Numbered from the stretch's first letter, positions 1,408 to 20,819 are shown. The stretch: 22,588 nucleotides of DNA from an uncultured virus (IMG/VR IMGVR_UViG_2660238316_000001) (IMGVR_UViG_2660238316_000001:62001-84588), one strand, 5' to 3'. The notes: generated by a model not told the origin, from the letters alone. Numbers and translations are program-made.

Positions 1408-1441
1408 AAAAAAGCCTGCTGGGCGAACCATGCAGGCTTTT
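1408..1441 (-). terminator. Second late-leader intrinsic terminator (possibly bidirectional)
   Basis: Minus strand AAAAGCCTGC-atggttcgccca-GCAGGCTTTTTT. Confidence 0.8.
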
Positions 1442-1473
1442 GGGGTAGTCAGGACTGACCGGAACTGACCAAT

Positions 1474-1506
1474 AAAAAACCGGAGCAGCTTTTAAGCATA
1501 CTCCGG
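1474..1506 (-). terminator. tR'-like hairpin with U6 tract just downstream of pR'
   Basis: Minus strand CCGGAGTATGCTTAAAAGCTGCTCCGG-TTTTTT. The stem extends through a G.U pair that exists only on the minus-strand RNA. Confidence 0.72.
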
Positions 1507-1517
1507 CATCTTTCTGT

Positions 1518-1546
1518 AATTTAGCGAGAGTTTATTCGTTAGGCAA
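1518..1546 (-). promoter_or_regulatory. Late promoter pR'
   Basis: TTGCCT-N17-TAAATT (lambda pR' is TTGACT-N17-TAAATT). A -10-like TATGCT in the initial transcribed region could be a sigma70 pause element. It sits upstream of terminators and the lysis genes. Confidence 0.72.
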
Positions 1547-2075
1547 GCAAAATCTCGGTCCAAGGCATCGATATTATTTTAATAATAAAACAAGCGAGCA
1601 ACAATAAAGATCCTATGACTGAACTAATTAATGTCAATGGGAATATAATTATCCATACTCGCATCATTGAATTACTAATAACTAACTCTTCTTTTTTTAC
1701 TTTTAAAAGTGCATCATCGTATGTCTTAAGATTAGTATAATCGCTAGCCGCTTTTATAAGCTCCTGTGAAAGTCTCATTGCCTTATGCTGAATCGCCAGT
1801 TTGTATATTTCAAAAGAAACAAAAAGACATGTAGATATAAACATCGAGGCAATGGAAAGCCAAACAAGCCAAGGGGTAAGCTCTTTATAGGTGCTAATCC
1901 ATGTCGTGTAGAATACTGTAAAGCCAGCAACTATTATCAGATTAGTATATTGATTGGCATTATCATAATTTCTTTTTTGTATCTCCATGATTTTTTCAAC
2001 TCTCTCAGTTGAAATTCTTCTGGCTTCTGACTCCGCGTACATTTGGGATGACGACTTAAATAGATCGTTATTCAT
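1539..2075 (-). CDS. AT-rich hypothetical membrane protein (about 3 TM segments), moron between Q and pR'
   Basis: 178-aa ORF with a GAGG SD, three hydrophobic stretches and visibly AT-rich composition. Confidence 0.8.
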   Translation of the reverse strand: MNNDLFKSSSQMYAESEARRISTERVEKIMEIQKRNYDNANQYTNLIIVAGFTVFYTTWISTYKELTPWLVWLSIASMFISTCLFVSFEIYKLAIQHKAMRLSQELIKAASDYTNLKTYDDALLKVKKEELVISNSMMRVWIIIFPLTLISSVIGSLLLLACFIIKIISMPWTEILLA

Positions 2076-2098
2076 GACTCAAACCTCAACAGGATATT

Positions 2099-2908
2099 TT
2101 AATTATTTAACTCAGCTTTGAGTCGATTATGCATATATTCTTCAGCTTCAGTGAGTCTTATGTACAGCATTTGCATGCACTCGTTCACTAATGACTGGTA
2201 TTGAGTCCCCCACTCCCCGGCGGATATCTCAGCCCCTATGATGCCCATAGATTTGCGCAGATGTTCCATTGTTGGCGGTATACGGCCACCACCACCGCAT
2301 TCGTTGCATGTTTCTGGATGAGGACGCAGGGTTTTACCGGCACCATGGCAACGTGGGCATACCTGCGTTACAGATGCCTGCTGATTAGCCCATGCACGCA
2401 ATGCTCCGCGTTCTGTTTTGATTTTAGACTGAAGGGTTTTTATTTCATCTGCCAGTAATGCGATAGTGCCATCATCAAGGGCCTGGGCTTTATCTCTTTC
2501 TAGTAATTTGATTTGCTGCTGGAGTCCCTCAACAACTTTTCTGGTGATACCGGTACGGGATCCGTAACGCCGCAGCAAAGTGGCAATTTGCTCTACCTGC
2601 GCCGGGAGGTTTCTATTCAACACCATATTCAGCGCTAACTGGCAGGCAGCAATGGCACGAGATGGATGTGGTCGCTTATGCAGCCACACACTAATTGCGG
2701 CCCGTAAGCGTTGCTCGGCTTTGCAATCATTGCGGTATTTGGTCATCAAAATATCAAATCCGACAGGGTGTATATGCTGGCAGGTAGCAAAAGTACCTAA
2801 TATCTGGTCTTTGGTCAGAACTGCACGACCTCTGCCAATGTTCAGCGATTCAATGCTGACGCAGCGCGGATCGTGCATTTTGATAAGTTGTTCAATTGCA
2901 GTGGTCAT
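2099..2908 (-). CDS. Q-like late antitermination protein (TIGR02642-like phage protein with zinc finger)
   Basis: CPRCHGAGK...CNECGGGG DnaJ-type Cys motifs; position between the nin region and pR'/lysis genes. Confidence 0.75.
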   Translation of the reverse strand: MTTAIEQLIKMHDPRCVSIESLNIGRGRAVLTKDQILGTFATCQHIHPVGFDILMTKYRNDCKAEQRLRAAISVWLHKRPHPSRAIAACQLALNMVLNRNLPAQVEQIATLLRRYGSRTGITRKVVEGLQQQIKLLERDKAQALDDGTIALLADEIKTLQSKIKTERGALRAWANQQASVTQVCPRCHGAGKTLRPHPETCNECGGGGRIPPTMEHLRKSMGIIGAEISAGEWGTQYQSLVNECMQMLYIRLTEAEEYMHNRLKAELNN

Positions 2909-2953
2909 TGGTCAGTCCCCTTTTTGAGTCTAAACCAATGATAAACATTATCC

Positions 2954-2992
2954 CACATAATGCAATTTAAGATAAAATAATTGCATTATGTG
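2954..2992. repeat. Perfect 14-bp inverted repeat between the TIR gene and Q
   Basis: CACATAATGCAATT-N11-AATTGCATTATGTG. Confidence 0.9.
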
Positions 2993-2997
2993 AAACA

Positions 2998-3864
2998 TTA
3001 AAGTGCCTTATTCATATCTATTTCGTAGCCAGATTTAATTAATTCTTTGGCAAGCATTAACTTCCAAGCCCCTGCTGCATCTTGGGATACATATACAACC
3101 CCACTTATATCGTTAGGTGTCTCGACTACCCCTTTAACTAAGGCACACACATTTTTCCTTGACAGTTTACCTATCAAGTATCCATGTTCAAAAACAACAT
3201 TCTGCCTGGCTCGAGGCTTATATTCCGGATTGTTAGATTGTTTTGCACCGATATCACATGGGGTATAGAGCACTACACCAAATCCAACATTCGTATACTC
3301 TTCTATCTTTTCAATTATAGTGCTACCAGAACTCGCCTGTTCGTGTAGAACTATAGGCTCAAGTCCCAATTTATTAAGGAATACTGCGACCTCGAGCCTT
3401 GCAGAGTCATCTTGTCCATGCACTATGAAAACTTTCTTTCTGTCAATCGCATTAATTTGTTTTTGCTCTTTCTCTTCAAGTTTTACTTTCGAGCCAAGAG
3501 TCTCTTTAGCCTCATTAAGTATGATTCTTGTTATGTCTTTTGAGTCCAGATTCGAACCACTAAAATGAAAGACAGAATCCTTTTCACCGATAAAATAAAT
3601 TACGCCATCTGGTATTCTTGAGTTAGCTCTTTCTGTAATTTGATTGCTATTAAATTCACTCTCGAAAACAACTAATCTTTTTATTCCATCTCTCTTTAAA
3701 AAATAGCCACTAAATTGAAACTCCTCATTCCTTAAATAGGGATGAAGGATATTTTCAAAAATTGTATTTTTATCTGTATAATTATACTCCTCATGTGAAA
3801 CTGTTGATGACTGACCCTTTTTAGTCGCACTGTTTTCTACTTCGATCATAATATGATAGTACAT
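2998..3864 (-). CDS. TIR-like domain nucleotide-binding protein (CAP12/Pycsar-type TIR, COG4271-like)
   Basis: KVFIVHGQD, LGLEPIVLHEQ, TIIEKIE, ARQNVVFEHGYLIGKL and ETPNDISGVVY motifs; AT-rich. Confidence 0.9.
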   Translation of the reverse strand: MYYHIMIEVENSATKKGQSSTVSHEEYNYTDKNTIFENILHPYLRNEEFQFSGYFLKRDGIKRLVVFESEFNSNQITERANSRIPDGVIYFIGEKDSVFHFSGSNLDSKDITRIILNEAKETLGSKVKLEEKEQKQINAIDRKKVFIVHGQDDSARLEVAVFLNKLGLEPIVLHEQASSGSTIIEKIEEYTNVGFGVVLYTPCDIGAKQSNNPEYKPRARQNVVFEHGYLIGKLSRKNVCALVKGVVETPNDISGVVYVSQDAAGAWKLMLAKELIKSGYEIDMNKAL

Positions 3865-3883
3865 ACTTACCCTCTGTAACTGC

Positions 3884-4327
3884 TTAATTTATTTTGATAT
3901 AATTTATCACTTTCTGTAACGCTTGTTCAAAACAAATGCAGTGTTCTACATCATATTTTTGTTCTTTTAATTTTTTTATCCAATCTTTTTGTTCTGGACT
4001 TAATTTCCCTGATTTTGACTTCATCTCTATCCACAACCCCGCATACCCGCCACGCGGCAGCGCCAGAAACAAATCTGGCACGCCTTTCCTCAACCCAAGC
4101 CGCTTAGCATCCCTTGCCGCCTTTGGCCCTCGCTTCCCCTCATTGGGTATATGGATCAGATAGTCCCCGATACAAATACCATTGATAACAGTTTTATCTG
4201 CCCACTCAATCAACGCGGCCTGTTCCTCGGTTTCCGCCTGGTGGTTAACTTTACGAACTTTCCCGTTACGCACTTCCAGCTTTGCTGCTGTTCCGATGAT
4301 ACCAATGGCATCTATGCTATTAAGCAA
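3884..4327 (-). CDS. VRR-NUC domain nuclease (PD-(D/E)XK; putative resolvase)
   Basis: HIPNEGKR...GLRKGVPDLFL...LWIEMK...GKLSPEQKDW. Confidence 0.9.
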   Translation of the reverse strand: MLNSIDAIGIIGTAAKLEVRNGKVRKVNHQAETEEQAALIEWADKTVINGICIGDYLIHIPNEGKRGPKAARDAKRLGLRKGVPDLFLALPRGGYAGLWIEMKSKSGKLSPEQKDWIKKLKEQKYDVEHCICFEQALQKVINYIKIN

Positions 4328-4649
4328 ACTGGCCCCCTTTAGCGATTACCAGCGATTCCTCCAGCCAAACCCTAAAAGTTGCATGCAATGCCAGTAATAT
4401 CGTTTCCTCAAGCTCTCCGGGCTGCCATTCATATGGTACCCGCCCATCAATAACATCATGGCAGCAGTTGCACCCAAATACGGCCCAGTAGTCATCTGAC
4501 TTATACCCCATGCCGTGGGTGGAACTGGGCAAATGGCACAGTACCGTTGTTTCTGGATTGCTGTTACAGATACCGGGGATCTGGAGCGTGCAGCATTGGC
4601 CCCGCGCAGAATCGCGCAGGGCTTTACTTCTAAACGCCGGAGATTTCAT
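4320..4649 (-). CDS. DUF1364/YbcO-like phage nin-region protein
   Basis: LRDSARGQCCTLQIPGICNSNPETTVLCHL...GCNCCHDVIDGR; start reassigned to ATG 4649 (GGAG SD). Confidence 0.85.
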   Translation of the reverse strand: MKSPAFRSKALRDSARGQCCTLQIPGICNSNPETTVLCHLPSSTHGMGYKSDDYWAVFGCNCCHDVIDGRVPYEWQPGELEETILLALHATFRVWLEESLVIAKGGQFA

Positions 4650-4650
4650 C

Positions 4651-7765: not shown

Positions 7766-8109
7766 TGCATGCCTCCTTGCGTGGTAGGAACCAGGCGATA
7801 AAACCAAACACGCTTACCGCTATCCTCATTGCGGACAGTTCTAACCTGTTTCACCAGCCCATGACGGACAGGATTAATTTCACGCAAGCGTGCGCTTATG
7901 GCGGTCTGGGTATCACCTTCACCGGGGAACATCTGGGATAATAATTTTTCGAGATCGCGCAGGGTCCGCCAGTCAGCACCACTGGCGGCACTGATCACGC
8001 GGTTTAACTGGCTGTTTGCATCTCTTAACCGACCAGCCAGACGCATAGACCTTACATCGTTGTTAATACCAACCCTTTCGGCGTTGGGTACGTGTGGCTT
8101 GATCACCAT
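7762..8109 (-). CDS. Hypothetical phage protein, possible winged-helix DNA-binding protein
   Basis: Overlaps both neighbours at start and stop; WRTLRDL...TAISARLRE...WFYRL pattern. Confidence 0.7.
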   Translation of the reverse strand: MVIKPHVPNAERVGINNDVRSMRLAGRLRDANSQLNRVISAASGADWRTLRDLEKLLSQMFPGEGDTQTAISARLREINPVRHGLVKQVRTVRNEDSGKRVWFYRLVPTTQGGMQ

Positions 8110-9245
8110 TACGCGCCCTCCCCGACCAGCACTTGGCGGGTTCCGTCTAGAGTTGGTTGTGACACAATGCCTTCAACCTGCATTCTTTCTAGCAGCCAGG
8201 CAGCACGGTTATAACCAATGCGGAGTTCACGCTGCAGCCCAGAGATTGAAGCTTTACCTTTTGCCTTGATGAACTCCACTGCTTCAGGATAGCGATCATC
8301 ATCGTCCCGTTCTGCACCGTCCAAGTCTACCCATGAACTACTGGTTGCCTCCCCGCCTAATGCCATAACCAGATCCGCAATTAAGGCAGCTAATTCACCC
8401 GTCATCAGAATAAAGTCCGCATCGAAACGCTGAGCATAATCCTCGCGATCGATATCGTCGTTTTGCTCCAGAAGCGTGGCACTGTATTTAACTCTCTTCA
8501 GGCTGCCATCGTCGGACAACATGAAACTGATACGTTCTCGCCACTCCAAAGCCAACTTGGTAACCAGTTTACCGGCGGCGATATGCCCACGGATCTCGTC
8601 ACTGACTAAATCCTGATGTTTACTGCGCAGAATGCCACCCTGTTCCAACACAGCCTTTAACTCAGCTTCTTCCTGAAGCACAAACCCAGCAGGCGCGGAC
8701 CCTGAGCGCAACCATTCGGTCAGCGTCAGTTCAATTGGGGTATCAAGTGTCATAGGGATAACAGGCAGTGAACCCATGGTTTTGCGCAATAATGACAATG
8801 CATTTTCAGCTTTCCGCGCGCTAGCGGCATCGATGATGATTAACCCAGCCCCTGCGTTAATCCAGATGGATGTTGTAGAGTATTTGCTAAAGGCCCGTGG
8901 CAGCAGAGTCTGGATAACTTCATCTTTCAGCGAGTCTTTTTCTGTTTTTTTCAGTTTACGGTGTTGCTCTTGCTCCAAGCGTTCAACTTTACTCGCCAGC
9001 TCACGGGCGATAACCGGCGCAGGTAAATCCTTTTTTTCACACTGCAATGTGATCAGGATTTGCTTGTTAGCCACATGCGCTAGCGTGGCGCTTTCGTTAC
9101 CCATTGGCGATATCCAACCAGTTTTCGCCATATCCTGGCTACCACACGGTGTAAATGCGAATTGCGCCATTTGCTCTTCCAGATTGGCGAAAGATACATC
9201 GCGGGATAGTTTGTAAATCAACACGTTCTTGAAATTAATGCTCAT
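8109..9245 (-). CDS. rdgC: Recombination-associated protein RdgC fused to a C-terminal FtsK gamma domain
   Basis: FKNVLIYKL...[14 protein letters not shown]...LLPRAFS...RFDADFILM (RdgC), then [31 protein letters not shown] (FtsK gamma). Confidence 0.92.
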
Positions 9246-9248
9246 TGG

Positions 9249-10022
9249 TCAGTCCTCAGTAATTTGATTATTATGCAAACCGTGGTCGGCGGCCTGCTGC
9301 AATGACTCTCGGTGTTTACTGTCCAGAGACTCTTGTAACCTGATACTTTCATCGCGCCATCCTCTTGCCCTTTCCTCCTGATCCTGTTTAATTTTGTCTT
9401 TCAACTCGTCTAAAAAATGACGGATTTTTGTTGGTACCCCATTACCCAACTTGCCCTTATCTGATAACAACAACTGATATTTCTCAGCTTTAGGTTTTGG
9501 CAATAGTCCTGTTGTTACCGCCTGTTCAACCGTGCGTTTTACCGTTTCTTTGTCCCATCCCTCCGACACTGACCACTCCGGTGATCGGCCTGTCGCCTGT
9601 GCTGCCTTAGTCAATCGCTCATAGGCCGCAATGAAAGCCATTCGCGCACCCACCTTGTCGCCTTCCCGCATAATTGGCTGAGCAATATTCCATGCCTGGG
9701 CAATTTCATTCGTCCAGACCACGGTGTTAGCCTCATCTTGCGCAGGTAATGCCAATGCCCACGCCTCATTCGCTGAAAGCCAATCGGGCTTACCGGCAAT
9801 ATGTTGGATATTGCGGATAATATCGGCAGGTTTTGGTGAGAATCTGCCTTGGTCTGGATCAGTAAGCCAGTTGCTAAATGCCTGGCGCACTGTGTCGATA
9901 TCGTTGGCCAGCAACGCATTCCAATAGAGTTCCAGCACGGCTTTTGAAGCATCTTTGCCGTATATCGCCAGAGTGGCTTTCATGATTTCTGCAAATTCAC
10001 GTTTATCATCTAAACCCTGCAT
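9249..10022 (-). CDS. Replication-associated protein in the P/helicase-loader position
   Basis: Follows the initiator; YW..L...DIDTVRQAF...GRFSPKPADI motif resembles phage loader-like proteins; start reassigned to ATG 10022. Confidence 0.65.
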   Translation of the reverse strand: MQGLDDKREFAEIMKATLAIYGKDASKAVLELYWNALLANDIDTVRQAFSNWLTDPDQGRFSPKPADIIRNIQHIAGKPDWLSANEAWALALPAQDEANTVVWTNEIAQAWNIAQPIMREGDKVGARMAFIAAYERLTKAAQATGRSPEWSVSEGWDKETVKRTVEQAVTTGLLPKPKAEKYQLLLSDKGKLGNGVPTKIRHFLDELKDKIKQDQEERARGWRDESIRLQESLDSKHRESLQQAADHGLHNNQITED

Positions 10023-10024
10023 AC

Positions 10025-10870
10025 TCACCACCCATCATTGACAAAATCATCCGCAACCCGCGCATTGTGCGCCTCCAGCGCTTCCTGACGACTCATGCCG
10101 GTGTTACCAGCGCACTGATTTTGTGGCCGACTACGATTCTGCAACCATTCAAATTTCAACCCCTGCCAACCGGCGGCCATGGCTTCAGACAACGCATCAT
10201 CCACAGACCATCCAGCAGCAACCGCTTTACTCAACTCCTTACCCAACATGTTCACCACGGTCTGAGTCATTGGAGCTCGTTTTGCTTTTCGGTGTTTTAG
10301 GTAGTCATCCCAAATCTCAGAGCTAACAGCCATCGGAAAAGCTGAGAAGTCTATTGCCGAACTTTTAGCCGCCTTACGTGTGCGCTTCTCTGTAGTAATC
10401 TCTGTAGTAATCTCTGTATGATCGAAATGGGGATTCCCTTGCCCGCCAGTTAGGGAATCCCTTGCTGGCGGCTTGGGCTTTTCCTCGTTCGCCAATTGGG
10501 GTTTTCCCGTTTCCCGAAATGGGCTTTCCCCATTTGGGGATTTATCAATAGGTTGCGATAGCATTCCATCCAACCGGTCGGTATCAATCTGATAGTAAAT
10601 ACGGTGTTCTAACCGCTTATTTGTTTCTTTCAAAACCCCCGCTTGCTTGAGCTTTTTACGAGCTGTGAGTTGTTCCTCGTAGGTCAATCCTGTTTCAGAT
10701 TCAATCTCTTCCGTAGTTTTAAAAATGCCAAACTCTGAAGTTTCTTTGCCAGTCCAATAGAAGAACTGGCAGAACAAAATGACTGCGTTTACGCTCCCAA
10801 GATATGGAACCAAGCCAGGGTAGTAAGCAATCGGCCGGCCAAATTGGTATATGAGTTCAGATGGCGTCAT
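10025..10870 (-). CDS. Phage replication initiator (O-like)
   Basis: N-terminal winged HTH (EIESETGLTYEEQLTARKKL), central repetitive linker with TEITTEITTE, and C-terminal WDDYLKHRKAKRAPMT...GWQG domain. Confidence 0.85.
   Translation of the reverse strand: MTPSELIYQFGRPIAYYPGLVPYLGSVNAVILFCQFFYWTGKETSEFGIFKTTEEIESETGLTYEEQLTARKKLKQAGVLKETNKRLEHRIYYQIDTDRLDGMLSQPIDKSPNGESPFRETGKPQLANEEKPKPPARDSLTGGQGNPHFDHTEITTEITTEKRTRKAAKSSAIDFSAFPMAVSSEIWDDYLKHRKAKRAPMTQTVVNMLGKELSKAVAAGWSVDDALSEAMAAGWQGLKFEWLQNRSRPQNQCAGNTGMSRQEALEAHNARVADDFVNDGW
10389..10545. repeat. Probable replication origin iterons inside the initiator gene
   Basis: Recurring GGG-W3/4-CCC-like units (gggattccc, gggaatccc, gggcttttcc, gggttttccc, gggctttccc) next to a 12-bp tandem TCTGTAGTAATC. 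Confidence 0.65.
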
Positions 10871-10878: not shown

Positions 10879-11058
10879 CTACGGCTGCTTTGCATCAGAG
10901 GGACTATGTTGGCGGGAATAAAATGCCTGGGTAATACCAGACAAAGCCCCTGTGATAGCCATACGGCGGGCCTCCTGCCCGTCAATAGCCAGTTTTTTAC
11001 CCACAATACTGGCAATCAATTCTACCGATTGTGTGGTCGTTGGCGTGATATTGGTCAT
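10879..11058 (-). CDS. Small hypothetical protein, 59 aa (absent from the ORF track)
   Basis: MTNITPTTTQSVELIASIVGKKLAIDGQEARRMAITGALSGITQAFYSRQHSPSDAKQP; AGGAG SD; ATGA overlap with the upstream gene; fills the operon gap. Confidence 0.75.
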   Translation of the reverse strand: MTNITPTTTQSVELIASIVGKKLAIDGQEARRMAITGALSGITQAFYSRQHSPSDAKQP

Positions 11059-11417
11059 TGGGATTTCTCCTGGCTGATTGGAAGCTCAGGCAGCCACTCG
11101 GGTACCGGCAGCCCGGCGAGTTTTAATTCAGCATGGACGTGAGCCAGCATTTCTGGAGCTTCAGCAAACATCGCCAAAAAACCACGAATTGCGGCCACAT
11201 TGGTTTCTACTGCGGGGTTTGAATCCAGCGCATTGGCGGTGCTTTTTATGGCCACTGCCTCGCTTTCTGTCCACCTGGTCTTAATCTGATCTTCACGCAC
11301 GGTATGGAACGGTAAACCGTTCTTTCCCACCTTTTTCCGGGATAGCAACTCCCGCCGGACGTCAGAGGCTATCGTAGCCCCTGCCGTTATAGCGGCAGGT
11401 TGATAAATTGTGGTCAT
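11055..11417 (-). CDS. Putative DNA-binding regulator in the cII position
   Basis: Starts at the shared motif; QIKTRWTESEAVAIKSTANAL resembles a ribbon-helix-helix; lies between cro and replication genes. Confidence 0.6.
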   Translation of the reverse strand: MTTIYQPAAITAGATIASDVRRELLSRKKVGKNGLPFHTVREDQIKTRWTESEAVAIKSTANALDSNPAVETNVAAIRGFLAMFAEAPEMLAHVHAELKLAGLPVPEWLPELPISQEKSQ

Positions 11418-11502
11418 TGGTCAGTCCTTAAATATCTTGGGTGATTACACGCATGGACATAAACTGTTAATCGTTTCTTTTTTAGTCCGCCATGGAGGCG
11501 CA

Positions 11503-11808
11503 ATGTCCAGTGATAATTCCCTTAGTTACATTAGAGCCTTGGTCGATGTTGTCGCCATTACCGTGCTATCCGGTAGTGATGAACAACATAAGCTCCGCAT
11601 CAAGCAAAGTCTGGATGCAATCATGAATCATCCGACATTGGAGATTTCACCTGAGGGTCAGGAATTATTTGCTCACTTTGCTGCCCTTCTGGATGGTTCA
11701 AGCACTGAGGTTTTCCTTTCAGCACGCATAAGCCAAGAAGATCCAGATCCTGAAAAGTCACACTCTTCCCCTCATTTGCGTTTATTGAGAGGGGGCAAAG
11801 AGGAGTAG
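11503..11808 (+). CDS. Hypothetical 101-aa protein opposing the pR operon (moron)
   Basis: GGAGG SD before ATG 11503; candidate promoter TTGGGT-N17-TAAACT at 11437-11465. Confidence 0.7.
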   Translation: MSSDNSLSYIRALVDVVAITVLSGSDEQHKLRIKQSLDAIMNHPTLEISPEGQELFAHFAALLDGSSTEVFLSARISQEDPDPEKSHSSPHLRLLRGGKEE

Positions 11809-11872
11809 CAGTTTTTTGTGTTTTACGCTTAGCTCTCCAGCTAGCGAGCCAACGCTTTGGGCTAATAGTCAT
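11621..11872 (-). CDS. Hypothetical basic protein downstream of cro
   Basis: Begins at an exact GAGGACTGACCAATG start motif; its 3' part overlaps the opposite-strand ORF. Confidence 0.5.
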   Translation of the reverse strand: MTISPKRWLASWRAKRKTQKTATPLCPLSINANEGKSVTFQDLDLLGLCVLKGKPQCLNHPEGQQSEQIIPDPQVKSPMSDDS

Positions 11873-11889
11873 TGGTCAGTCCTCTATCT

Positions 11890-12151: not shown

Positions 12152-12228
12152 AGCGTAACTAAAGTGTCGGGCTCACGCAAGAGAATAACGAAAACAAAGT
12201 TTCCAAAGATGGTGTTACTTTGGTGTCA
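12152..12228. promoter_or_regulatory. oR: three 16-bp operators and promoter pR (minus strand)
   Basis: CGTAACTAAAGTGTCG (12154), CGAAAACAAAGTTTCC (12189), TGTTACTTTGGTGTCA (12213); pR TTGCGT-N17-TACGCT at 12180-12152; the same palindrome family occurs at oL. Confidence 0.8.
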
Positions 12229-12261
12229 GATTTTAGCTATACACAATATTTGGAGAATTTA

Positions 12262-12948
12262 ATGACAAGCACTCTGGCTGAAAGGGTTAGCGAACGTAGA
12301 GCGGCTTTGAATCTTAGTCAGGAAGAATTAGCCAGGAAAGCCGGTGTATCGAGGGTTGCCATAAGCAAAGCTGAGCTGGGGCTGACCAAAAATTTTAATG
12401 GTGATACGCTGTTTAATATTGCCCGTGCTCTTTTATGCAATCCAGAATGGCTTCAGACGGGAAAGGGAAATCCTGAATTACAATCCACATCCAGCGCTAA
12501 TTGGGATGCGAATGTGAAAGAGAATAAAGACTCGCATCCTGTACAATCCTATGAGTACCCAAAAATCAGTTGGGTTAGCGCGGGGAATTGGTCTGAAGCT
12601 ATTGAGCCATACAGCCTCAACGAAATAGATGATTGGGTCACTACCACCAAATATGCGGGCCAAAACGCTTTTTGGCTTGATGTTAAAGGAGACTCCATGA
12701 CCTCCCCGGTGGGGCTAACCATTCCAGAAGGTATGTCAGTATTAGTGAATCCTGATATCGAACCCACTTCGGGTAAATTGGTGATTGCTAAATTAACTGA
12801 TGATAATGAGGCTACATTCAAACGTTATATTGAAGATGCTGGCAATAAATATCTCAAACCGCTTAACCCTCAGTATCCAATGATAAAAATCAATGGTAAC
12901 TGTCGTATTATTGGGGTTGTCGTTGAAGCCAAATGGGAAAATTTATAG
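12262..12948 (+). CDS. cI: CI-like repressor (XRE HTH plus S24 autopeptidase)
   Basis: LSQEELARKAGVSRVAISKAE HTH; SAG cleavage site; VKGDSM (Ser) and ATFKRY (Lys); start at ATG 12262 with GGAG SD. Confidence 0.95.
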   Translation: MTSTLAERVSERRAALNLSQEELARKAGVSRVAISKAELGLTKNFNGDTLFNIARALLCNPEWLQTGKGNPELQSTSSANWDANVKENKDSHPVQSYEYPKISWVSAGNWSEAIEPYSLNEIDDWVTTTKYAGQNAFWLDVKGDSMTSPVGLTIPEGMSVLVNPDIEPTSGKLVIAKLTDDNEATFKRYIEDAGNKYLKPLNPQYPMIKINGNCRIIGVVVEAKWENL

Positions 12949-12958
12949 GGAGATAGCA

Positions 12959-13624: not shown

Positions 13625-13718
13625 CGAAACTAAAGTATCAAATCTCACTTGACGCAATCCGAAACTATAGTTACATTTGGATTCAAGAACAGAACCACCA
13701 CCCGAAACAATGGGTACG
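13625..13718 (+). promoter_or_regulatory. oL operators and promoter pL
   Basis: CGAAACTAAAGTATCA (13625), CGAAACTATAGTTACA (13660), weaker CGAAACAATGGGTACG (13703); TTGACG-N17-TACATT at 13649-13677. Confidence 0.85.
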
Positions 13719-13729
13719 CTCTTTAACAA
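13717..13729 (+). promoter_or_regulatory. nutL boxA
   Basis: CGCTCTTTAACAA, the consensus boxA, about 35 nt into the pL transcript. Confidence 0.9.
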
Positions 13730-14306: not shown

Positions 14307-14397
14307 ACAGATATCCTTACTTGTTGTGGTGACAGCAAGGATAGCACGCGCCGGGCGTGGATAAATATCCCGGCAAAAGCCAACTGAGGACTGACCA

Positions 14398-14643
14398 ATG
14401 GCCACAACATCTCGTCAAAAGCGTATGGCAAAAAAACGCAATGCCCATATCCAGGCACTGGCAAAGCGTGAAAGTAACCGAGTTGAAAAAGCAGTATTAG
14501 TTTTGGTGCGGTGTAAACCGATGCCAGATATGCCAGCAGTACCCAGCAAGCCCAGAACTTCAGCAGATCCAGAGAAACGGATTGCAGCAGTTGCCCGCCA
14601 AAAGATGCGTGGTTGCAGTAAGTTACCTCGCGGCGTGCGTTAA
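14398..14643 (+). CDS. N-like early antitermination protein
   Basis: Arg/Lys-rich N-terminus (SRQKRMAKKR); small and basic; downstream of nutL boxA and directly before a terminator. Confidence 0.7.
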   Translation: MATTSRQKRMAKKRNAHIQALAKRESNRVEKAVLVLVRCKPMPDMPAVPSKPRTSADPEKRIAAVARQKMRGCSKLPRGVR

Positions 14644-14677
14644 GCATTAATTAGCAGTAAAGCAAAATAAACCATCG

Positions 14678-14709
14678 GAGCTACAGCTTAGGCTGTGGCT
14701 CTTTTTTTT
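14678..14709 (+). terminator. tL1-like intrinsic terminator
   Basis: GAGCTACAGC-ttag-GCTGTGGCTC followed by a T run. Confidence 0.88.
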
Positions 14710-15404: not shown

Positions 15405-16055
15405 TTATTTGATAGCCTTTTCAATGAAAATTGCTCTGCAATTAGCAAGGAATTCATTCTTTGTTGCTATTGGATCTGCTTTAATCTCAGCCCCCATTTC
15501 TGGGTTAGCCTTAGCCTGATTCAATATCGATCTTAAATAGTAATAAGCCGATTTATTAAATTCAGCATCAGCAGATTTTCCTATTTTTTTATTGAAATCA
15601 TCCCAAACGCTAACGCCTGCGGCGATAGCAAGCTCGTCTGATTTTCCTTCACTGAAATAAGCTTTTAGTGTTTGAAAACCGGCAAGGCAGTTTGTATCTA
15701 ATATCGTTAGAGTCTTATACCAAGATGCCTCTGATTCTTTGCCTTCACATCCAGTCAGACGATACTCACTTTTCTCATTCTTAGAAAGATCTGAACTCAC
15801 GTAGATAGTTTTGTGTTGAGTATAAGCAAAGGGAATGAAATCAGCCTCTTGACTATTTTCCCCTGTAATACGGACCTCACCACAAACAAACGTTTCGCCG
15901 GTAGAGTTGGTTGCTTCAGTGATTGACCGATATTCCACTGTTTTCGGGTTCTGCATGCCTTCACGCATCACCTTTTCCATGGCTGGAATATCTACAGCAA
16001 ATGCTGATGGAATACTAAGAATTGATGCTAATAAAACTACAAGTTGTCTTTTCAT
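15405..16055 (-). CDS. Exported protein with Sec signal peptide (moron, opposite orientation)
   Basis: MKRQLVVLLASILSIPSAFA signal peptide, VCGEV motif, AAGG SD, AT-rich. Confidence 0.85.
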   Translation of the reverse strand: MKRQLVVLLASILSIPSAFAVDIPAMEKVMREGMQNPKTVEYRSITEATNSTGETFVCGEVRITGENSQEADFIPFAYTQHKTIYVSSDLSKNEKSEYRLTGCEGKESEASWYKTLTILDTNCLAGFQTLKAYFSEGKSDELAIAAGVSVWDDFNKKIGKSADAEFNKSAYYYLRSILNQAKANPEMGAEIKADPIATKNEFLANCRAIFIEKAIK

Positions 16056-16080: not shown

Positions 16081-16114
16081 AAAAGAGAAAAGCCCCAGCG
16101 ATTAAGCCGGGGCT
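16081..16114 (-). terminator. Intrinsic terminator on the strand antisense to the pL operon
   Basis: AGCCCCGGC-ttaatc-GCTGGGGCT-TTTCTCTTTT; the stem needs a G.U pair present only on the minus strand. Confidence 0.72.
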
Positions 16115-16168
16115 ATCCCAGGAGTGCGGGACCAACCGCAAACCTACTGAGGACTGAACAATAACCAC
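16081..16168 (-). ncRNA. Second candidate small RNA antisense to the shared start motif
   Basis: Contains UUAUUGUUCAGUCCUCAGUAGG and a hairpin with loop UUGGUC ahead of the terminator; only a weak promoter is visible (TTGGTC-N16-AATAAT). Confidence 0.4.
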
Positions 16169-16223
16169 GAGGATTATTATCAGCGTGGTTGAGTGACCAA
16201 ACCCAACCATGGGAAAGCATACC

Positions 16224-16373
16224 ATGACTATTGAATTCATCAAGAAACTCCAATACCGCCACCGCGTTACCGGCGACGACTTCAACCTATATCCCAAACA
16301 ATCTGGCCTGAAATTCTTCTTCGCCTGTGTTTTAGGCGCGTTCATGTTTCTGGCTATCGCTGTCAAAATCTGA
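16224..16373 (+). CDS. Small 49-aa protein with a C-terminal TM segment (absent from the ORF track)
   Basis: MTIEFIKKLQYRHRVTGDDFNLYPKQSGLKFFFACVLGAFMFLAIAVKI; its stop abuts the bet SD. Confidence 0.7.
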   Translation: MTIEFIKKLQYRHRVTGDDFNLYPKQSGLKFFFACVLGAFMFLAIAVKI

Positions 16374-16383
16374 GGGCTGACCA

Positions 16384-17229
16384 ATGACCACCCAAGCAGT
16401 AACAACCAGTAATCTCCCGCCCGCCGTGGTTGGGTTGAATATTGACGAACCAACGTGGAACGCGCTGAAAAACAGTATTTACCCTGGCGCTAAAGATGAT
16501 TCAGTCATCATGGCGGTGAGTTATTGCCGCGCCCGCCAGTTAGATCCACTGATGAAACCCGTTCATTTAGTTCCTATGAGCGTGAAAGATGCGGTAAGTG
16601 GTAAATATGAAATGCGTGATGTGGTGATGCCCGGTGTTGGGCTCTATCGCATACAGGCAGACCGCTCTGGTAACTATGCCGGTGCACAGGAACCCGAATT
16701 TGGCCCTGACCTCACACAAGTTTTTAACGGAGTAGAAATTACTTTCCCTCAGTGGTGCAAATACACCCTGAGCAAACTGATGCCTAACGGCACTATTGTG
16801 GAGTTCAGTGCGAAGGAATATTGGCTGGAGAACTATGCGACCGCTGGCCGCGATACCCAAGCACCCAATGCCATGTGGAAAAAGCGGCCTTATGGGCAAT
16901 TAGCCAAGTGCGCCGAAGCGCAGGCACTGCGTAAAGGGTGGCCGGAAATTGGTCAGCAGCCAACAGCAGAAGAAATGGAAGGTAAAAGTCTTGATGTGAA
17001 TGAAGGTAAAGAACACAGCCAAGGCAGCCAGCAACCAAGCCAGCCGCAGGCACTACCAGAATATAGCGCGGAACAATTTCAACGCGCACTTGCTGACTGG
17101 ACAACGCTGATCAACAAGGGCAAGAAAACTGCCGCGCAAATCATCAACACCATCGAAAGTAAATACACCCTCACCTCGGCACAAATCAAAACTATCGAAT
17201 ATCTGGAGGCAGAAGATGCAAATCATTAA
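16384..17229 (+). CDS. bet: Phage single-strand annealing recombinase Bet (RecT family)
   Basis: YCRARQLDPLMKPVHLVP, GLYRIQADRSG, MWKKRPYGQLAKCAEAQALRKGWP. Confidence 0.93.
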   Translation: MTTQAVTTSNLPPAVVGLNIDEPTWNALKNSIYPGAKDDSVIMAVSYCRARQLDPLMKPVHLVPMSVKDAVSGKYEMRDVVMPGVGLYRIQADRSGNYAGAQEPEFGPDLTQVFNGVEITFPQWCKYTLSKLMPNGTIVEFSAKEYWLENYATAGRDTQAPNAMWKKRPYGQLAKCAEAQALRKGWPEIGQQPTAEEMEGKSLDVNEGKEHSQGSQQPSQPQALPEYSAEQFQRALADWTTLINKGKKTAAQIINTIESKYTLTSAQIKTIEYLEAEDANH

Positions 17230-18820: not shown

Positions 18821-18864
18821 CCTTTCATAACCTGCCACGGCAGGCATTCCACAGGTAACCCATC

Positions 18865-20004
18865 ATGACCACACAGGCCACAACTGCCAGTGTGCTGGAG
18901 TCATCTCTGCGTCCAGTTCGGGCGCAGTTAGACCTTGCCATTGAGCAGACTACCGGCACCGCACAGCGCTCTATAGAGAGCGCGACTGTTTTACTCAACC
19001 AAGCACAGTCCCTATGTATTGAACAACTCAACATCGAGACTGACGAGTACAACCTTTTATTCGACCGTTTAGAAAAAACTGAAAACGACCTAACCACGAA
19101 ATCCTTGGCGTTAACACAAGTGCCGGAACGCATAGAAAATGCAGACCTGTTAGTCGCTGAAGCCAATGCGCAGCGAGACAGTATTTCAGCCAAATACAAT
19201 CTTTCACTTTCAGACCAACGCGTGTTGGCTACTGAGGTGAATCGGTTGAAGTCACTGAATCCTGAAAAAATGAAAATCCAGATCGTTCGCCTCAAAGATG
19301 ATTTGGAGAGCAAGCGTACGTTGTTAAACCAGCAACTAACAGAGATCCGGCGATACAAAAAAGAGGTGGCAGAAAAAACCAGCAAACTGGCTGTCATGGT
19401 CAATGTTAATGACCAATTGAATAATGCCGTTTCTGACCTCACCAACCGGATCCAGCGTATGGATGGTGACGTCGAGCCAACCTACTATCGTGGCAATGAT
19501 GGCACTGAATTTTACTTTTATACCTTCCAGTGGGGGCTGAAACTACGCTCAGGTGATTACGATATGCAGCTCATTAACGATATTGACTGGCATATTGAAA
19601 TTCGCTCCACCAGCGGCATTGGCCTGATCGTCTCGGTCAATGAGTGGGCATTACCCGTCTATCCCATGGTTGATGATTTCAAACAGAACTGGCCGGATGG
19701 CCTGACCCCAGCGGTTACCCAGCGTATTCGAGATCTGCTTGAGCCTACTCACCCACACTTAGTTAAGCGGGCTGAGTGGGCAGGAACCGTGCTGACCGAA
19801 ACCCTACCGTTGAAAGAGCAGCATTTAGAGCTGCTGGCCCGCTCTGGGATCCATTCGTTATTTGATGTTGTCCGTCGAACCCCGGATATGTTGGCTAATG
19901 CCGTCAAAGGCTTTGGGATCGCCAGCGCCCGCCAGGTACATGCTCAATGCACCCGAATCGTAAAAGAGTGGGAATTAGAGCAGAAACAGAAGGAAGCCGC
20001 ATGA
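18865..20004 (+). CDS. Coiled-coil protein with a C-terminal helix-hairpin-helix (RNA polymerase alpha-CTD-like) domain
   Basis: About 200 aa of heptad-like sequence; C-terminal LARSGIHSLFDVVRRTPDMLANAVKGFGIASARQV. Confidence 0.75.
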   Translation: MTTQATTASVLESSLRPVRAQLDLAIEQTTGTAQRSIESATVLLNQAQSLCIEQLNIETDEYNLLFDRLEKTENDLTTKSLALTQVPERIENADLLVAEANAQRDSISAKYNLSLSDQRVLATEVNRLKSLNPEKMKIQIVRLKDDLESKRTLLNQQLTEIRRYKKEVAEKTSKLAVMVNVNDQLNNAVSDLTNRIQRMDGDVEPTYYRGNDGTEFYFYTFQWGLKLRSGDYDMQLINDIDWHIEIRSTSGIGLIVSVNEWALPVYPMVDDFKQNWPDGLTPAVTQRIRDLLEPTHPHLVKRAEWAGTVLTETLPLKEQHLELLARSGIHSLFDVVRRTPDMLANAVKGFGIASARQVHAQCTRIVKEWELEQKQKEAA

Positions 20005-20429
20005 TGGATGAGGAACTGAACCAGAGTACCGGCAACTACTTTAAAGAAGATGACCGGGGGGACTATACCGCTCGTATCATCTGGCTAATGCGCTGTCGCG
20101 CAGAGATCCGCAGTGGTAATCCCTATCGACCGATGCCAAAACCAATTTATCCCGGTAATGAGCAATGGCGTGGCTTATCTCAGGTGAATACGGTCGATAT
20201 CGGTATTCGTAAGCGCTACTCATTGGAAGTTTTGCTGGCTATCTATCAGTTTTACCGCGCTGGCCACAATGAAAATTTGATTGCCAGCAGTACCGGTATC
20301 CCGGTGACCACTATCCGCAAAATGTTGGAACATAAAACTCAGAATCAGCGCAAAGCATGGCAATTGGCCTACCAGCTTCGCATTCCCTCCAAAAGAGACA
20401 TTATCAACCGGTTAATTCGGGAGGTTTAA
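20001..20429 (+). CDS. Hypothetical protein with C-terminal HTH
   Basis: ATGA overlap with the upstream stop; GHNENLIASSTGIPVTTIRKML HTH-like segment. Confidence 0.75.
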   Translation: MMDEELNQSTGNYFKEDDRGDYTARIIWLMRCRAEIRSGNPYRPMPKPIYPGNEQWRGLSQVNTVDIGIRKRYSLEVLLAIYQFYRAGHNENLIASSTGIPVTTIRKMLEHKTQNQRKAWQLAYQLRIPSKRDIINRLIREV

Positions 20430-20549
20430 CCATATCCGACCGTAGCATTCGATAGCAGTATCACTAAAACATAGCCCCTTACCACTCTAGACCAAACGAC
20501 CATAATAGGGCGTAACATCTTTGCGCCCTTTCCTACTGAGGAAAGACCA

Positions 20550-20819
20550 ATGACCAAACTACTGACATTAGAAGAATGGGCGGAAGAAACCTACCGCAGC
20601 AAGCAACCAACCCCCCAGACACTCCAGCGCTGGGCGCGAGGCGGCAATATTTACCCGGCACCTGAAAAACATGGGCGCGAGTATCGTGTACAGCCAGGCG
20701 CGATTTATATTCAGCCTAAAAGTTATCGGCTGGCAAAAGAAATACTTAAAACATCCCCCAGTACAAGTTCATCGTTAATAGAGAGAATTATTCATGGCAA
20801 AGAGGCCAAAAAAGTATGA
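20550..20819 (+). CDS. xis: Excisionase
   Basis: LLTLEEWA...PTPQTLQRWARGGNIYPAPEKHGREYRV, a lambda Xis-like winged helix; overlaps the int start. Confidence 0.92.
   Translation: MTKLLTLEEWAEETYRSKQPTPQTLQRWARGGNIYPAPEKHGREYRVQPGAIYIQPKSYRLAKEILKTSPSTSSSLIERIIHGKEAKKV

Follow-up and report, generated by a model that had tools for sequence, protein, structure and literature searches.

A 13-nt ribosome-site and start-codon tag, GGACTGACCAATG, recurs in the early region of a lambda-like prophage, and its complement (hereafter, the anti-tag) occurs at two minus-strand loci, in the leader of the lysis/late operon (site 1) and in a candidate small RNA opposite the PL operon (site 2). The window analyzed here is the whole stretch of 22,588 nt, positions 62001-84588 of the uncultured provirus IMGVR_UViG_2660238316_000001. 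Lambda-like prophages that form one family, from Yersinia, Serratia, and Brenneria, keep the tag at the starts of a fixed set of early genes: the N-like and Q-like genes, the gene in the cII position, rdgC, recT, xis, and the ORF after cro. In the reading that we favor tentatively, giving it a little less than an even chance, the phage would make two RNAs bearing the anti-tag, a small RNA of ~130 nt and the late-operon leader, and both would pair with the tag over the ribosome site and the AUG, leading to less translation of the tagged early genes. In this model, synthesis of the two RNAs, the start point of the small one, pairing in trans, and the effect of such pairing are inferred.

There are five exact copies of the tag and four with one or two changes. 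These make nine matches in the window (at most two mismatches), whereas shuffled sequences had 0.46 on average and never more than 3, none of 100 shuffles reaching nine. Seven of the nine finish on an ATG that opens an ORF of early genes. On the minus strand, exact copies open the Q-like gene (tag 2906-2918, ORF 2099-2908), the RdgC-FtsK-gamma gene (9243-9255 and 8109-9245), where the TGA of the tag doubles as the stop of the upstream gene 9249-10031, a 120-aa gene in the cII position (11415-11427 and 11055-11417), and an 83-aa ORF after cro (11870-11882 and 11621-11872). On the plus strand, the fifth exact copy (14388-14400) opens the N-like 81-aa gene (14398-14643), which has a plus-strand terminator downstream (14677-14702), while the variants GGGCTGACCAATG (16374-16386) and GGAAAGACCAATG (20540-20552) open recT (16384-17229) and xis (20550-20819). 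All of these starts had been listed in the earlier note, with recT named bet, and each ATG is indeed an ORF start. The gene names given there stand in part: RdgC, RecT, and Exc (for xis) are Pfam assignments and the Q-like gene has a weak PHROG match (phrog_127, E 8.5e-10), but the cII-position label reflects position only, and the N-like label reflects position and an arginine-rich N-terminus, its product having no family match in Pfam or PHROG. The two copies that do not open a gene finish in ATA, and we call them orphans; as had been noticed previously, both read CAATAA at the end, and a hairpin with a U-run comes after each of them when the minus strand is read.

Conservation extends beyond the 13 nt, to approximately CTGA-GGACTGACCAATG-ACCAC, and with its flanks, ~22 nt in all, the tag comprises a stop codon, a GGA ribosome site, a 7-nt spacer, ATG, and ACC. 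It is asymmetric and keeps one orientation relative to genes, with one copy, that at site 1, reversed with respect to local transcription. A scan of the full provirus, host genomes, and relatives, suggested in the earlier note as a check, found the tag confined to the window (22.6 kb of early region in a provirus of 84.6 kb), not used by the hosts, and kept in the relatives. Each of 21 related proviruses (G001-G017, G019-G022) has 7-12 matches at the same threshold, including ten in G005; there are nine in G023 and two in the 21%-complete G018. Between genera (Yersinia, Serratia, and Brenneria prophages), the tag is identical in six of seven orthologue comparisons, and the seventh shares 12 of the 13 bases; the flanks in those same comparisons are 42-82% alike. 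The tag is under strong constraint. Both orphans are likewise kept in every examined relative that has the region. Among 151 genomes from the family of the Y. alsatica genome G024, just two have at least three exact tags, and both carry the site 2 RNA; it is absent from the 11 genomes with one or two tag copies, and single copies are no commoner in the 151 genomes than a reversed control pattern.

Such constraint could in principle reflect an optimal translation start region copied among genes, perhaps with extra pairing to 16S rRNA and with no dedicated partner. The tag contains GAGGA/GGA well spaced from the ATG, and its stop codons, which occupy two reading frames, would link translation to that of the preceding gene. 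Still, we consider this explanation hardly credible. The best match of the 23-nt consensus to the 16S rRNA of Y. alsatica G024 has seven contiguous pairs, two of them G-U, which was equaled by 300 of 300 shuffles; exact identity over 13-22 nt across genera far exceeds what ribosome binding needs; and the host genomes do without the tag.

Many homology breaks fall close to the tag. Homology to all five first relatives stops at 2918-2926, by the Q-like tag; alignments (HSPs) end at 11428, by the cII-position tag, in three of the five, and at 11868, by the post-cro tag, in two. In total, 13 of 81 internal BLAST alignment ends in these relatives lie within 12 nt of the seven tagged starts (1.86 per site), whereas 25 other gene starts account for 14 of the 81 (0.56 per site). 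Divergence of the relative present in the RNA runs likewise falls at 2918 and 9235. Together with the presence of RecT and RecE in this phage, this would fit a recombination linker, in which the tag is a stretch of identity for RecET cassette swaps and the orphans are scars with no function at the RNA level. However, a conserved block makes alignments end beside it whatever the cause, and its constant position relative to the ATG and ribosome site argues for a role in translation. Moreover, the orphans lie off the cassette junctions, the variable segment by site 1 ending at 1526, in the promoter, and not at 1451-1474, and what lies at site 2 is an RNA structure with covariation, not a scar. 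On balance, the linker as a sole explanation seems improbable. A role as linker is compatible with a regulatory one.

At site 2, sequence comparison points to a minus-strand RNA that has a terminator and whose structure is conserved. The candidate antisense RNA of ~131 nt (16081-16211, minus strand) contains orphan 2 and would be transcribed against the PL operon from 16211 to 16081. Its predicted elements are hairpin H1 (16209-16186) with the loop UUGGUC (16200-16195), hairpin H2 (16184-16153), with the bulk of the anti-tag in its 3' strand, an unpaired linker CCUCAGU (16152-16146), hairpin H3 (16145-16120) with a second UUGGUC loop (16135-16130), and a terminator (16119-16085) with a U-run to 16081. 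The earlier note had placed an antisense of the tag ahead of an intrinsic terminator here, and this holds: the terminator was listed by the scan (16114..16091 plus UUUCUCUUUU) and is kept in 18 of 18 homologues. The parts of the RNA left unpaired, the two UUGGUC loops and a CAGUCC linker, which the RNA would display, are complementary to the tag, UUGGUC being the complement of its GACCAA.

The predicted fold has a minimum free energy of -55.5 kcal/mol (z -5.8). The consensus fold favors the minus strand over the plus (-59.1 vs. -30.1 kcal/mol), the minus strand folding better in each of nine sequences, and of the cells in the structure predicted for it, 64 pair on the minus strand only and one on the plus strand only. 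An alignment of 16 distinct sequences, representing five lineages, has 95.7% of its cells paired and compensatory changes in 25 of 37 pairs; none of 500 shuffles scored as high, and slid controls were 33-53% paired. While the stems covary, the UUGGUC loop is invariant in H3 (18 of 18 sequences) and nearly so in H1 (16 of 18). The 5' end was placed, as a candidate, from a conserved promoter-like TGnTATnCT (extended -10-like, 16224-16216) read off an alignment; the promoter scan listed nothing for site 2. The same element overlaps the spacer between the ribosome site and the ATG of a gene for a 49-aa protein, which could account for its conservation. Just past the terminator, on the same strand, lies an inserted 216-aa gene (15405-16055, phrog_36625), in place of which G001, G002, and G004 have 24-26 nt; as it has only 26 nt of upstream DNA of its own, minus-strand transcription through site 2 is implied. 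No transcript of either RNA was seen: the RNA runs X1-X3 consist only of unstranded contigs of a relative that is 90-95% alike, and the raw-read run X21, without the prophage, gave 103 partial reads only. The site 2 RNA had no match in Rfam, sequenced phages, or E. coli genomes; the Rfam search returned RyeA/SdsR and no other match, leaving hok/sok and other type I families and the listed phage antisense RNAs unmatched, so that the novelty check raised in the earlier note turned up nothing that describes this system.

At site 1, the minus strand carries a late promoter (1518-1546; -35 TTGCCT at 1546-1541, 17-nt spacer, -10 TAAATT at 1523-1518), which we take to resemble lambda PR', followed by an AAAGAT pause-like element (1513-1508); transcription would start near 1511. 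The -35 element of relatives is TTGACC or TTGACT, and CTAAATT...GAAAGAT is invariant in all 17 leader sequences of an alignment chosen with a pattern that requires the anti-tag. Next come a first terminator T1 (1474-1506; hairpin CCGGAG...CTCCGG at 1506-1480 and U6 at 1479-1474), the anti-tag itself (1451-1474; UAUUGGUCAGUUCC plus GGUCAGUCC), and a tR'-like terminator T2 (1404-1441; stem-loop GCCUGC-AUGGUUCGCCCA-GCAGGC at 1437-1414 and U6AUUU), 23 nt upstream of the holin ATG at 1381. Thus, the leader holds AUUGGUCAGU(U)CC between the promoter-proximal T1 and T2, antisense to orphan 1 (the tag variant GAACTGACCAATA, 1462-1474) and to a second, partial tag copy. T1 and T2 were identified by sequence reading and folding; the terminator scan, which allows loops of up to 8 nt, passed over both, as theirs are longer. 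The earlier note was right that the antisense copy precedes a terminator, T2, but missed T1 upstream of it, which places the copy between two terminators. Without Q, most leader transcripts would probably end before the anti-tag. A short or leader RNA is expected from a late leader of the PR' type.

The arrangement of promoter, T1, anti-tag, T2, and holin is held in the Yersinia-type, Brenneria-type, and G273 lineages. The T1 stems of relatives vary in a compensatory fashion (e.g., CCGAGG/CCTCGG), G273 has an entirely different hairpin, and the anti-tag is retained directly after T1 in both the Brenneria-type and G273 lineages; T2 combines a conserved loop with a covarying stem (GCCGC/GCGGC, CCCGC/GCGGG). 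In the G006-G009 group, the leader has GUCAGUCC and a hairpin with a UUGGUC(A/G) loop, and only 8 nt are retained. The late-promoter module occurs four times in the provirus, only the lysis-operon copy having the anti-tag, and 27 of 79 distinct promoter modules in IMG/VR have it. No match to the site 1 stretch was found in sequenced phages.

The anti-tag of the leader can form 14-15 contiguous pairs (2-3 of them G-U) with six of the seven tags, from -10 to +4 and spanning the AUG. Duplex energies computed for whole RNAs distinguish tagged from untagged genes poorly (for the site 1 RNA, -26.5 to -39.5 for tagged genes vs. a background of -25.6 +/- 6.7). In G273, most tags (four of six) read GGACTAACC, and both antisense elements carry the matching U. 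For site 2 this co-change is not independent, since the RNA is cis-antisense to one tag copy. For the leader, G273 is the one agreeing lineage; L375 has a U opposite G-type tags.

The cis relationship at site 2 suggests a narrower interpretation. Orphan 2 (plus strand; core GGACTGAACAATA at 16151-16163 in the block CTGAGGACTGAACAATAACCACG at 16147-16169) lies on the PL-operon strand at the start of a mini-ORF of 11 codons (ATA at 16161-16163, stop at 16194-16196), which keeps an ATG and 4-23 codons in Brenneria, S. quinivorans, G273, and the G006-G009 group, and an ATG in G067 too. It is followed by the gene for the 49-aa protein (16224-16373, plus strand; 54 aa if the start is 16209), which has a hydrophobic C-terminus and no match in Rfam, Pfam, or PHROG; it has homologues listed as 'hypothetical protein' in Y. 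pseudotuberculosis and Y. enterocolitica, and it is conserved in Brenneria and Serratia loci. This protein would be the likely cis target. The site 2 RNA might then be an ordinary cis-antisense RNA of the lambda OOP or hok/mok/sok kind that controls only the opposite mini-ORF and this membrane-type protein, the other matches being a by-product of the family tag on that mini-ORF and the leader copy having an unrelated role or none. That the RNA covers the start of the mini-ORF just upstream of a conserved gene for a hydrophobic protein agrees with this, as does the sequestration of most of the anti-tag, 10 of its 13 bases being paired within H2 in the predicted fold. Orphan 2 has also drifted from the other tags, both in the window (C to A), where the RNA has one C-U mismatch to the tag, and in S. 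quinivorans, whose copy, GGACTGGCCAATGG, has two mismatches with its own tags. Yet a fully complementary cis RNA needs no loops that match the tag, whereas here those loops are invariant or nearly so on covarying stems, and a second, unlinked anti-tag persists across lineages in the late leader, in just one of the four promoter modules. In addition, the mini-ORF of the window starts with ATA, and none of the type I families of Rfam was matched. We regard purely local control as somewhat unlikely.

A partner other than RNA has also to be considered. The tag might be bound by a phage translational regulator similar to T4 RegA, acting on mRNA, or by a stoperator-type DNA-binding protein that blocks elongation, with the antisense copies as extra sites or irrelevant. 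A 13-bp, asymmetric, singly oriented site restricted to early operons resembles both stoperators and the start-associated sequences (SAS) of mycobacteriophages, for which the authors leave a protein or an RNA partner open (PMC3203893). Against this, a protein that binds single-stranded RNA would not recognize two sequences complementary to each other, the antisense version of the tag is shown in hairpin loops with covarying stems, and the places expected for operators, the cI-cro interval and the stretch before the N-like leader, hold none of the nine copies. We regard a protein site as very unlikely.

We return to the trans-antisense model. Lysogeny or early infection would be the time of action of the small RNA, and the late leader would follow after Q turns on late transcription; a single RNA-RNA interaction could hold down many phage genes together. 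Of the antisense regulon put forward in the earlier note, the tag, the conserved orphans, the structured site 2 RNA with complementary loops, the PR'-type leader, and the empty Rfam search speak for it, while T1 ahead of the site 1 copy, the pairing of the site 2 anti-tag within its own RNA, a possible cis-antisense by-product, and the junctions at the tag qualify it; the 'immunity layer' of that note is a conjecture. A bolder version, which we consider unlikely, sees the tag as an 'address label' moving with early-gene cassettes between lambda-like prophages of the three genera, to be read by the small RNA and the late leader, which would use one complementary sequence to silence both antiterminators, the excisionase, and the recombination genes. 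If this were true, the phage would silence its own leaky or late messages and also superinfecting relatives with the same label, whatever their repressor type. Such an RNA-based layer of timing and cross-exclusion could also explain the purpose of start-associated sequences.

Small structured RNAs that end in a terminator and lie opposite the start of their target are familiar from lambda OOP, P22 Sar, P1 C4, P4 CI, and hok/mok/sok, and they act on one or a few linked sites. The site 2 locus has a layout similar to that of hok/mok/sok, with a mini-ORF, a small hydrophobic protein, and a putative antisense RNA over the mini-ORF start, and its exposed loops starting with U-U-G-G presumably fit the YUNR motif of antisense-RNA loops. 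The difference from these phage and plasmid RNAs is that a complementary tag is present on seven dispersed genes. Linker or boundary sequences are reportedly part of the modular theory of lambdoid phage evolution of Susskind and Botstein. Like them, the tag is a short conserved block that coincides with mosaic junctions; unlike them, it is a complete start site in a fixed register, with conserved antisense partners.

The closest analogue of the tag is the SAS of Cluster K mycobacteriophages, an analogue and not a fellow member: a 13-bp asymmetric motif with a ribosome-site core at start codons, mostly ATG, found before unrelated gene families in the non-structural half of the genome only, near-absent from the host, with a rare reversed copy, and of a function unknown to its authors (Pope et al., 2011; PMC3203893). 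The tag shares the placement at start codons (seven of nine copies), the restriction to early genes, the single orientation, and the near-absence from the host. On the other hand, the SAS consensus is GGGATAGGAGCCC, and the host phylum and phage type are different; the register of the tag to the ATG is fixed at 0 nt and extends into codon 2, compared with 3-7 bp for SAS; and around the tag we saw no extended inverted repeats (ESAS) but have a candidate RNA partner. The stoperators of L5 and Cluster A, described in the same source, are also numerous 13-bp asymmetric sites with one orientation relative to transcription (PMC3203893), but they are repressor-bound DNA sites, present at the early promoter as well and not tied to starts. 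A stoperator-type identity was rejected for the tag, which has no copy at the immunity promoters and is fixed to the ATG.

For the late leader, the nearest parallel is StxS, the short PR'-tR' transcript of Stx phage, which acts in trans as a small RNA (Sy et al., 2020; PMC7547250). No sequence likeness to StxS or lambda 6S was found in Rfam, or in the E. coli genomes, which were searched with the site 2 stretch only. The common features are a constitutive late promoter downstream of Q, termination at once, before the lysis genes, and a by-product RNA able to act as a base-pairing regulator; what sets the present leader apart is that it has two terminators with the pairing stretch between them, and that its proposed targets are the phage's own tagged early genes.

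The early region of the window is lambda-like by PHROG and Pfam scans. Holin and endolysin genes (the lysis genes; 1-1381, minus strand) are accompanied by a weakly matching Q-like gene (phrog_127, E 8.5e-10), Nin-type genes, two DNA methyltransferases, RdgC fused to an FtsK-gamma domain (8109-9245, minus strand), an O-like replication gene, a CI-type repressor (12220-12948), RecT and RecE, and Xis and Int; the labels "N-like" and "cII-position" were assigned from position only. The C-terminal FtsK-gamma domain of the RdgC homologue is a KOPS-reading winged helix, an unusual combination for a recombination-associated phage protein. The integration site of the prophage immediately adjoins the host small-RNA pair RyeA/SdsR (21975-22120; Rfam 172 and 110 bits, the sole Rfam matches at E <= 1), whose region is 84-92% identical to E. 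coli across about 120-180 nt.

The earlier note had claimed a shared start-codon motif at seven genes and two further copies without ATG, and both claims hold. The 13-base tag, GGACTGACCAATG, has nine matches at up to two mismatches in the 22,588-base window; dinucleotide-preserving shuffles (n = 100) yielded 0.46 on average and never nine or more (0/100). Exact copies lie at 2906-2918, 9243-9255, 11415-11427 and 11870-11882 on the minus strand and at 14388-14400 on the plus strand, and variants with one or two changes at 16374-16386 and 20540-20552; every one of these seven copies opens an ORF with its ATG. Two orphan copies, at 1462-1474 (site 1) and 16151-16163 (site 2), end in ATA and head no gene. 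When the copies are printed in register, the conserved block exceeds the 13-mer, reading roughly CTGA-GGACTGACCAATG-ACCAC. Its elements are a stop codon, a GGA ribosome site, a further TGA in frame, 7 nt of spacer, the ATG and a codon for threonine. A scan of the full 84.6-kb provirus restricted the tag to the window, the last 22.6 kb of the record, with no copy in the remaining 62 kb.

The tag recurs in relatives. A 15-mer scan of IMG/VR returned at least 136 stretches, many of them chance matches owing to the short query, and proviruses with several matches were examined further. In 21 related proviruses (G001-G017, G019-G022) there are 7-12 copies each at up to two mismatches (10 in G005); G023 has nine, and G018, which is 21% complete, has two. 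When one genome per species was scanned with an 18-mer, nine of the 27 stretches fell in seven named genomes. Eight of these nine, from six genomes (Yersinia alsatica, Y. similis, Serratia quinivorans and three Brenneria), belong to the tag family, and the Serratia proteamaculans locus has a single copy; the remaining 18 match the estimated ~17 chance matches. Among seven orthologue comparisons of the window with Brenneria or S. quinivorans, the tag was identical in six and agreed at 12 of 13 bases in the seventh, while identity was 42-82% in the 40 nt before the genes and in their first 60 nt. In the family of genome G024, an exact copy was found in 14 of 151 genomes and three or more only in G024 and G298, single copies being about as frequent as those of a reversed control pattern. 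Given the identity across orthologues and the control-level frequency of single host copies, the tag is phage-specific and strongly constrained.

The start of the Q-like gene is unusually variable, as the equivalent of 2906-2918 ends in ATA in at least four relatives (G001 22676-22688, G002 30703-30715, G014 25000-25012, G019 13715-13727) and reads GGACTGACCAAATG in Brenneria-type relatives.

The tag could be nothing more than a strong start site, as its GGA ribosome site and ATG would allow, but we consider this very improbable. Pairing of the tag with 16S rRNA of Y. alsatica was dismissed: the best helix had seven pairs, two of them G-U, and was equalled by 300 of 300 shuffles. That the constrained block is a protein site is also improbable, if slightly less so. 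A third possibility is that the tag is purely a recombination linker. The first five relatives are mosaics whose alignable parts are 76-99% identical to the window, and 13 of the 81 internal ends of alignments of at least 150 nt between the window and five relatives fall no more than 12 nt from one of the seven tagged starts, with 14 at 25 other gene starts and 54 elsewhere; the relative found in RNA runs also diverges at 2918 and 9235. This is compatible with the tag serving as a crossover point. Still, a conserved block stops alignments whatever the cause, and we regard a pure linker as rather unlikely; a linker role is compatible with the other readings.

The earlier note had further proposed two antisense RNAs, and this stood in part: a conserved structured RNA complementary to the tag is predicted at site 2 and a complement of the tag (anti-tag) is present in the leader at site 1, but a promoter scan listed nothing at site 2. 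At site 2, a strong minus-strand terminator (16114..16091, followed by UUUCUCUUUU) has no minus-strand gene upstream. From this terminator to the start of a small plus-strand gene, the sequence hardly varies among relatives with ~87% identity elsewhere, and it can still be recognised in Brenneria, S. quinivorans, G010 and G021. We found 14 distinct sequences in 16 sources and aligned nine of them. Their consensus fold has four helices with compensatory changes in 12 of 43 pairs, with consensus energies of -59.1 kcal/mol for the minus and -30.1 for the plus strand, the minus-strand fold being better by 5.6 to 24 kcal/mol in all nine sequences. In the structure predicted for the minus strand, 64 cells pair on that strand only vs one on the plus strand only; the corresponding counts for the plus-predicted structure are 12 and 8. 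The 131-nt RNA of the window (16081-16211) has a predicted fold of -55.5 kcal/mol (z -5.8). Better pairing of the helices on the minus strand speaks against reading the plus-strand GACCAA hairpins as boxB/nut sites.

A covariance model built from the nine sequences retrieved further homologues, namely the divergent G006-G009 group (42-47 bits), G273 (62.9 bits) and, weakly, G067 (33 bits). In the alignment of 18 matches (16 distinct) to the model, which by construction favours its own structure, 95.7% of cells are paired and 25 of 37 pairs show compensatory changes, compared with 33-53% of cells and 3-8 pairs in slid controls; none of 500 shuffles reached any of the five measures. RNAalifold, applied independently to this alignment, recovered the same helices. 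The loop of helix H3, UUGGUC, is invariant in all 18 sequences, and the H1 loop has the same sequence in 16, the exceptions being S. quinivorans (GGUGGUU) and G067 (a gap in the alignment). Also conserved is GGUCAUUGGUCAGUCC or a lineage variant of it, whose 3' part is single-stranded in the predicted fold and whose 5' part forms one strand of H2. UUGGUC is complementary to the GACCAA of the tag, immediately before the AUG, and CAGUCC to GGACUG. Searches of Rfam, 50,697 phage records and 5,426 complete E. coli genomes returned no match to the site 2 stretch, and the small RNA appears to represent an undescribed structured RNA family. It is a new, conserved and structured candidate antisense RNA with exposed tag-complementary parts.

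This RNA also keeps company with the tag. At E <= 1e-4 it was detected in three of 151 genomes, with the tag adjoining in all three, and it is present in both genomes with tag clusters. An order-level search with the covariance model gave matches in nine of 151 genomes at E <= 0.01, most of which were dismissed by inspection, leaving G024 and G067 as the only homologues. In G067 (C1 677173-677254, 681486-681499), the distant homologue (33 bits) sits opposite another shared start block, GAGACAAGA(G/C)CAATGACCC, which may be a sister tag; its three copies in the prophage region are too thin for a covariation test.

The 5' end of the RNA would lie near 16209-16211 if TGnTATnCT, conserved in the nine-sequence alignment, is a promoter element; the same bases also separate, on the opposite strand, a 49-aa gene's start from its ribosome site. 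A 216-aa gene (phrog_36625; 15405-16055, minus strand) is inserted exactly behind the terminator in the window, G003, G005 and Y. alsatica, and is replaced by 24-26 nt in G001, G002 and G004. The insertion brought along just 26 nt of DNA upstream of the gene, so that expressing it would require transcripts that pass the terminator, and this indirectly supports a minus-strand promoter; the gene looks like a moron riding on transcription of the small RNA. In a search of sequencing runs, no RNA run contained more than 0.2 of the words. Three RNA runs (X1, X2, X3) contain a prophage 90-95% alike, as assembled contigs that carry no strand, ends or level, and the prophage is absent from the raw-read run X21.

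At site 1, the anti-tag is embedded in the leader of the late (lysis) operon. On the minus strand, a putative late promoter (-35 TTGCCT, 1546-1541; 17-nt spacer; -10 TAAATT, 1523-1518) is followed by AAAGAT (1513-1508), terminator T1 (hairpin CCGGAG...CTCCGG and U6, 1506-1474), the anti-tag stretch AUUGGUCAGUUCC-GGUCAGUCC (1473-1452), terminator T2 (hairpin with loop AUGGUUCGCCCA, and U6AUUU, 1441-1404) and the holin ATG at 1381. Both hairpins are predicted in the fold of 1403-1511 (-43.6 kcal/mol, z -5.4), and the duplicated anti-tag of the window can fold on itself too. Brenneria-type leaders have -35 TTGACC or TTGACT and carry one copy of the anti-tag, the exactly antisense AUUGGUCAGUCCUCA, between T1 and T2. 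TTGAC(C/T)-17-TAAATT and AAAGAT appear similar to lambda PR' and its pause element. CTAAATT and GAA(A/T)GAT are invariant among 17 distinct aligned leaders, and the T1 stems show compensatory changes, in a set that is biased, since leaders were selected with a pattern requiring the anti-tag. The T1 hairpin of G273 is entirely different, yet the same AUUGGUUAGUC comes after it; the G006-G009 leaders keep only GUCAGUCC, followed by a hairpin with loop UUGGUC(A/G) or CUGGUCC.

An unbiased scan found the anti-tag in 27 of 79 distinct promoter-plus-pause modules. The provirus of the window has four modules, all on the minus strand, with the anti-tag only in the one ahead of the lysis genes, and modules of some relatives share T1 and continue differently. 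By this comparison, the anti-tag is an addition to the lysis-operon leader rather than part of the promoter-terminator module, and a conserved, specific feature of that leader. The four modules (CGCTAAATTnnnnAAAGAT, then a terminator hairpin) are spread across about 24 kb (39682-39700, 47731-47749 and 56311-56329 of the record; 1508-1526 of the window), and many related proviruses have two copies 6-8 kb apart, a layout that hints at several late operons under Q instead of a single one. In T2 (1414-1437) and its counterparts in relatives, the 12-nt loop AUGGUUCGCCCA, which contains a T-loop-like GGUUCG, is kept while the stem covaries between lineages, so the loop itself seems to be under selection.

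Two further leader scans were of little use. Among the matches listed, that with ATTGGTNAGTC was swamped by lambda-type cII/oop-terminator sequences reading TTTTTTATTGGTGAGTC, a likeness judged unrelated, and a U-variant scan gave one family member in 37 matches. Lambda-type IMG/VR prophages (L222-L340) have in common ...CCGGGCGTTTTTTATTGGTGAGTC, which we take to be the oop terminator and 3' end of cII; its likeness to the junction of T1 and anti-tag (hairpin, U6, AUUGGU) is taken as chance.

Could these RNAs act on the tagged genes? Whole-RNA duplex energies were too unspecific and were replaced by contiguous-helix counts; allowing G-U pairs inflates their background, in which the tagged genes are also counted. 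With six of the seven tags, the leader copy can make a helix of 14-15 contiguous pairs, 2-3 of which are G-U, spanning -10 to +4; with the xis tag it can make nine pairs; both "mismatches" of the 1462-1474 copy are G-U pairs in RNA. In G273, four of six tags read GGACTAACC, and a matching U is found in the small RNA and in the unlinked leader element. This matched change is seen in one lineage only, and its small-RNA part is not independent, because the RNA is the complement of one tag copy. At locus L375 a leader U lies opposite G in the two tags within reach, retaining a G-U pair, and in G006-G009 the tags are mixed (G, A, C), with U in the small RNA and C in the leader.

Control might instead be confined to the site itself. 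The plus strand of site 2 carries a mini-ORF headed by the orphan tag (11 codons with ATA in the window, 4 to 23 with ATG in other lineages) and, downstream, a conserved gene for a small hydrophobic protein; in Y. pseudotuberculosis and Y. enterocolitica, the 49-aa protein beside site 2 is listed as a "hypothetical protein". Regulation in cis, with the mini-ORF and the small protein as sole targets, is in our judgment unlikely, though worth serious consideration. We tentatively favour pairing in trans, in which the site 2 RNA, the leader or both would bind several tagged early-gene starts. There is precedent for a PR'-tR' by-product RNA acting as a regulator, namely StxS (PMC7547250). If trans pairing is true, a temperate phage would control many dispersed early genes post-transcriptionally via one short RNA, and interference with tag-sharing relatives may follow.

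Literature searches on SAS (start-associated sequences of Cluster K mycobacteriophages), lambdoid mosaic and gene boundaries, prophage antisense RNA and ribosome binding sites, and Yersinia prophage-encoded sRNA, with subscription journals outside their coverage, found no published tag-plus-antisense arrangement in lambdoid phages. The svsR paper (PMC12803456) and the abstract of the Pas small-RNA preprint offered nothing relevant to the site 2 RNA. The tag is an enterobacterial analogue of SAS (PMC3203893) and not a member of their family. An SAS-like tag now comes with a concrete, conserved candidate RNA partner, in phages of easily handled enterobacteria. We know of no partner or function assigned to SAS since 2011, and the analogous tag with its candidate partner makes the SAS question directly testable.
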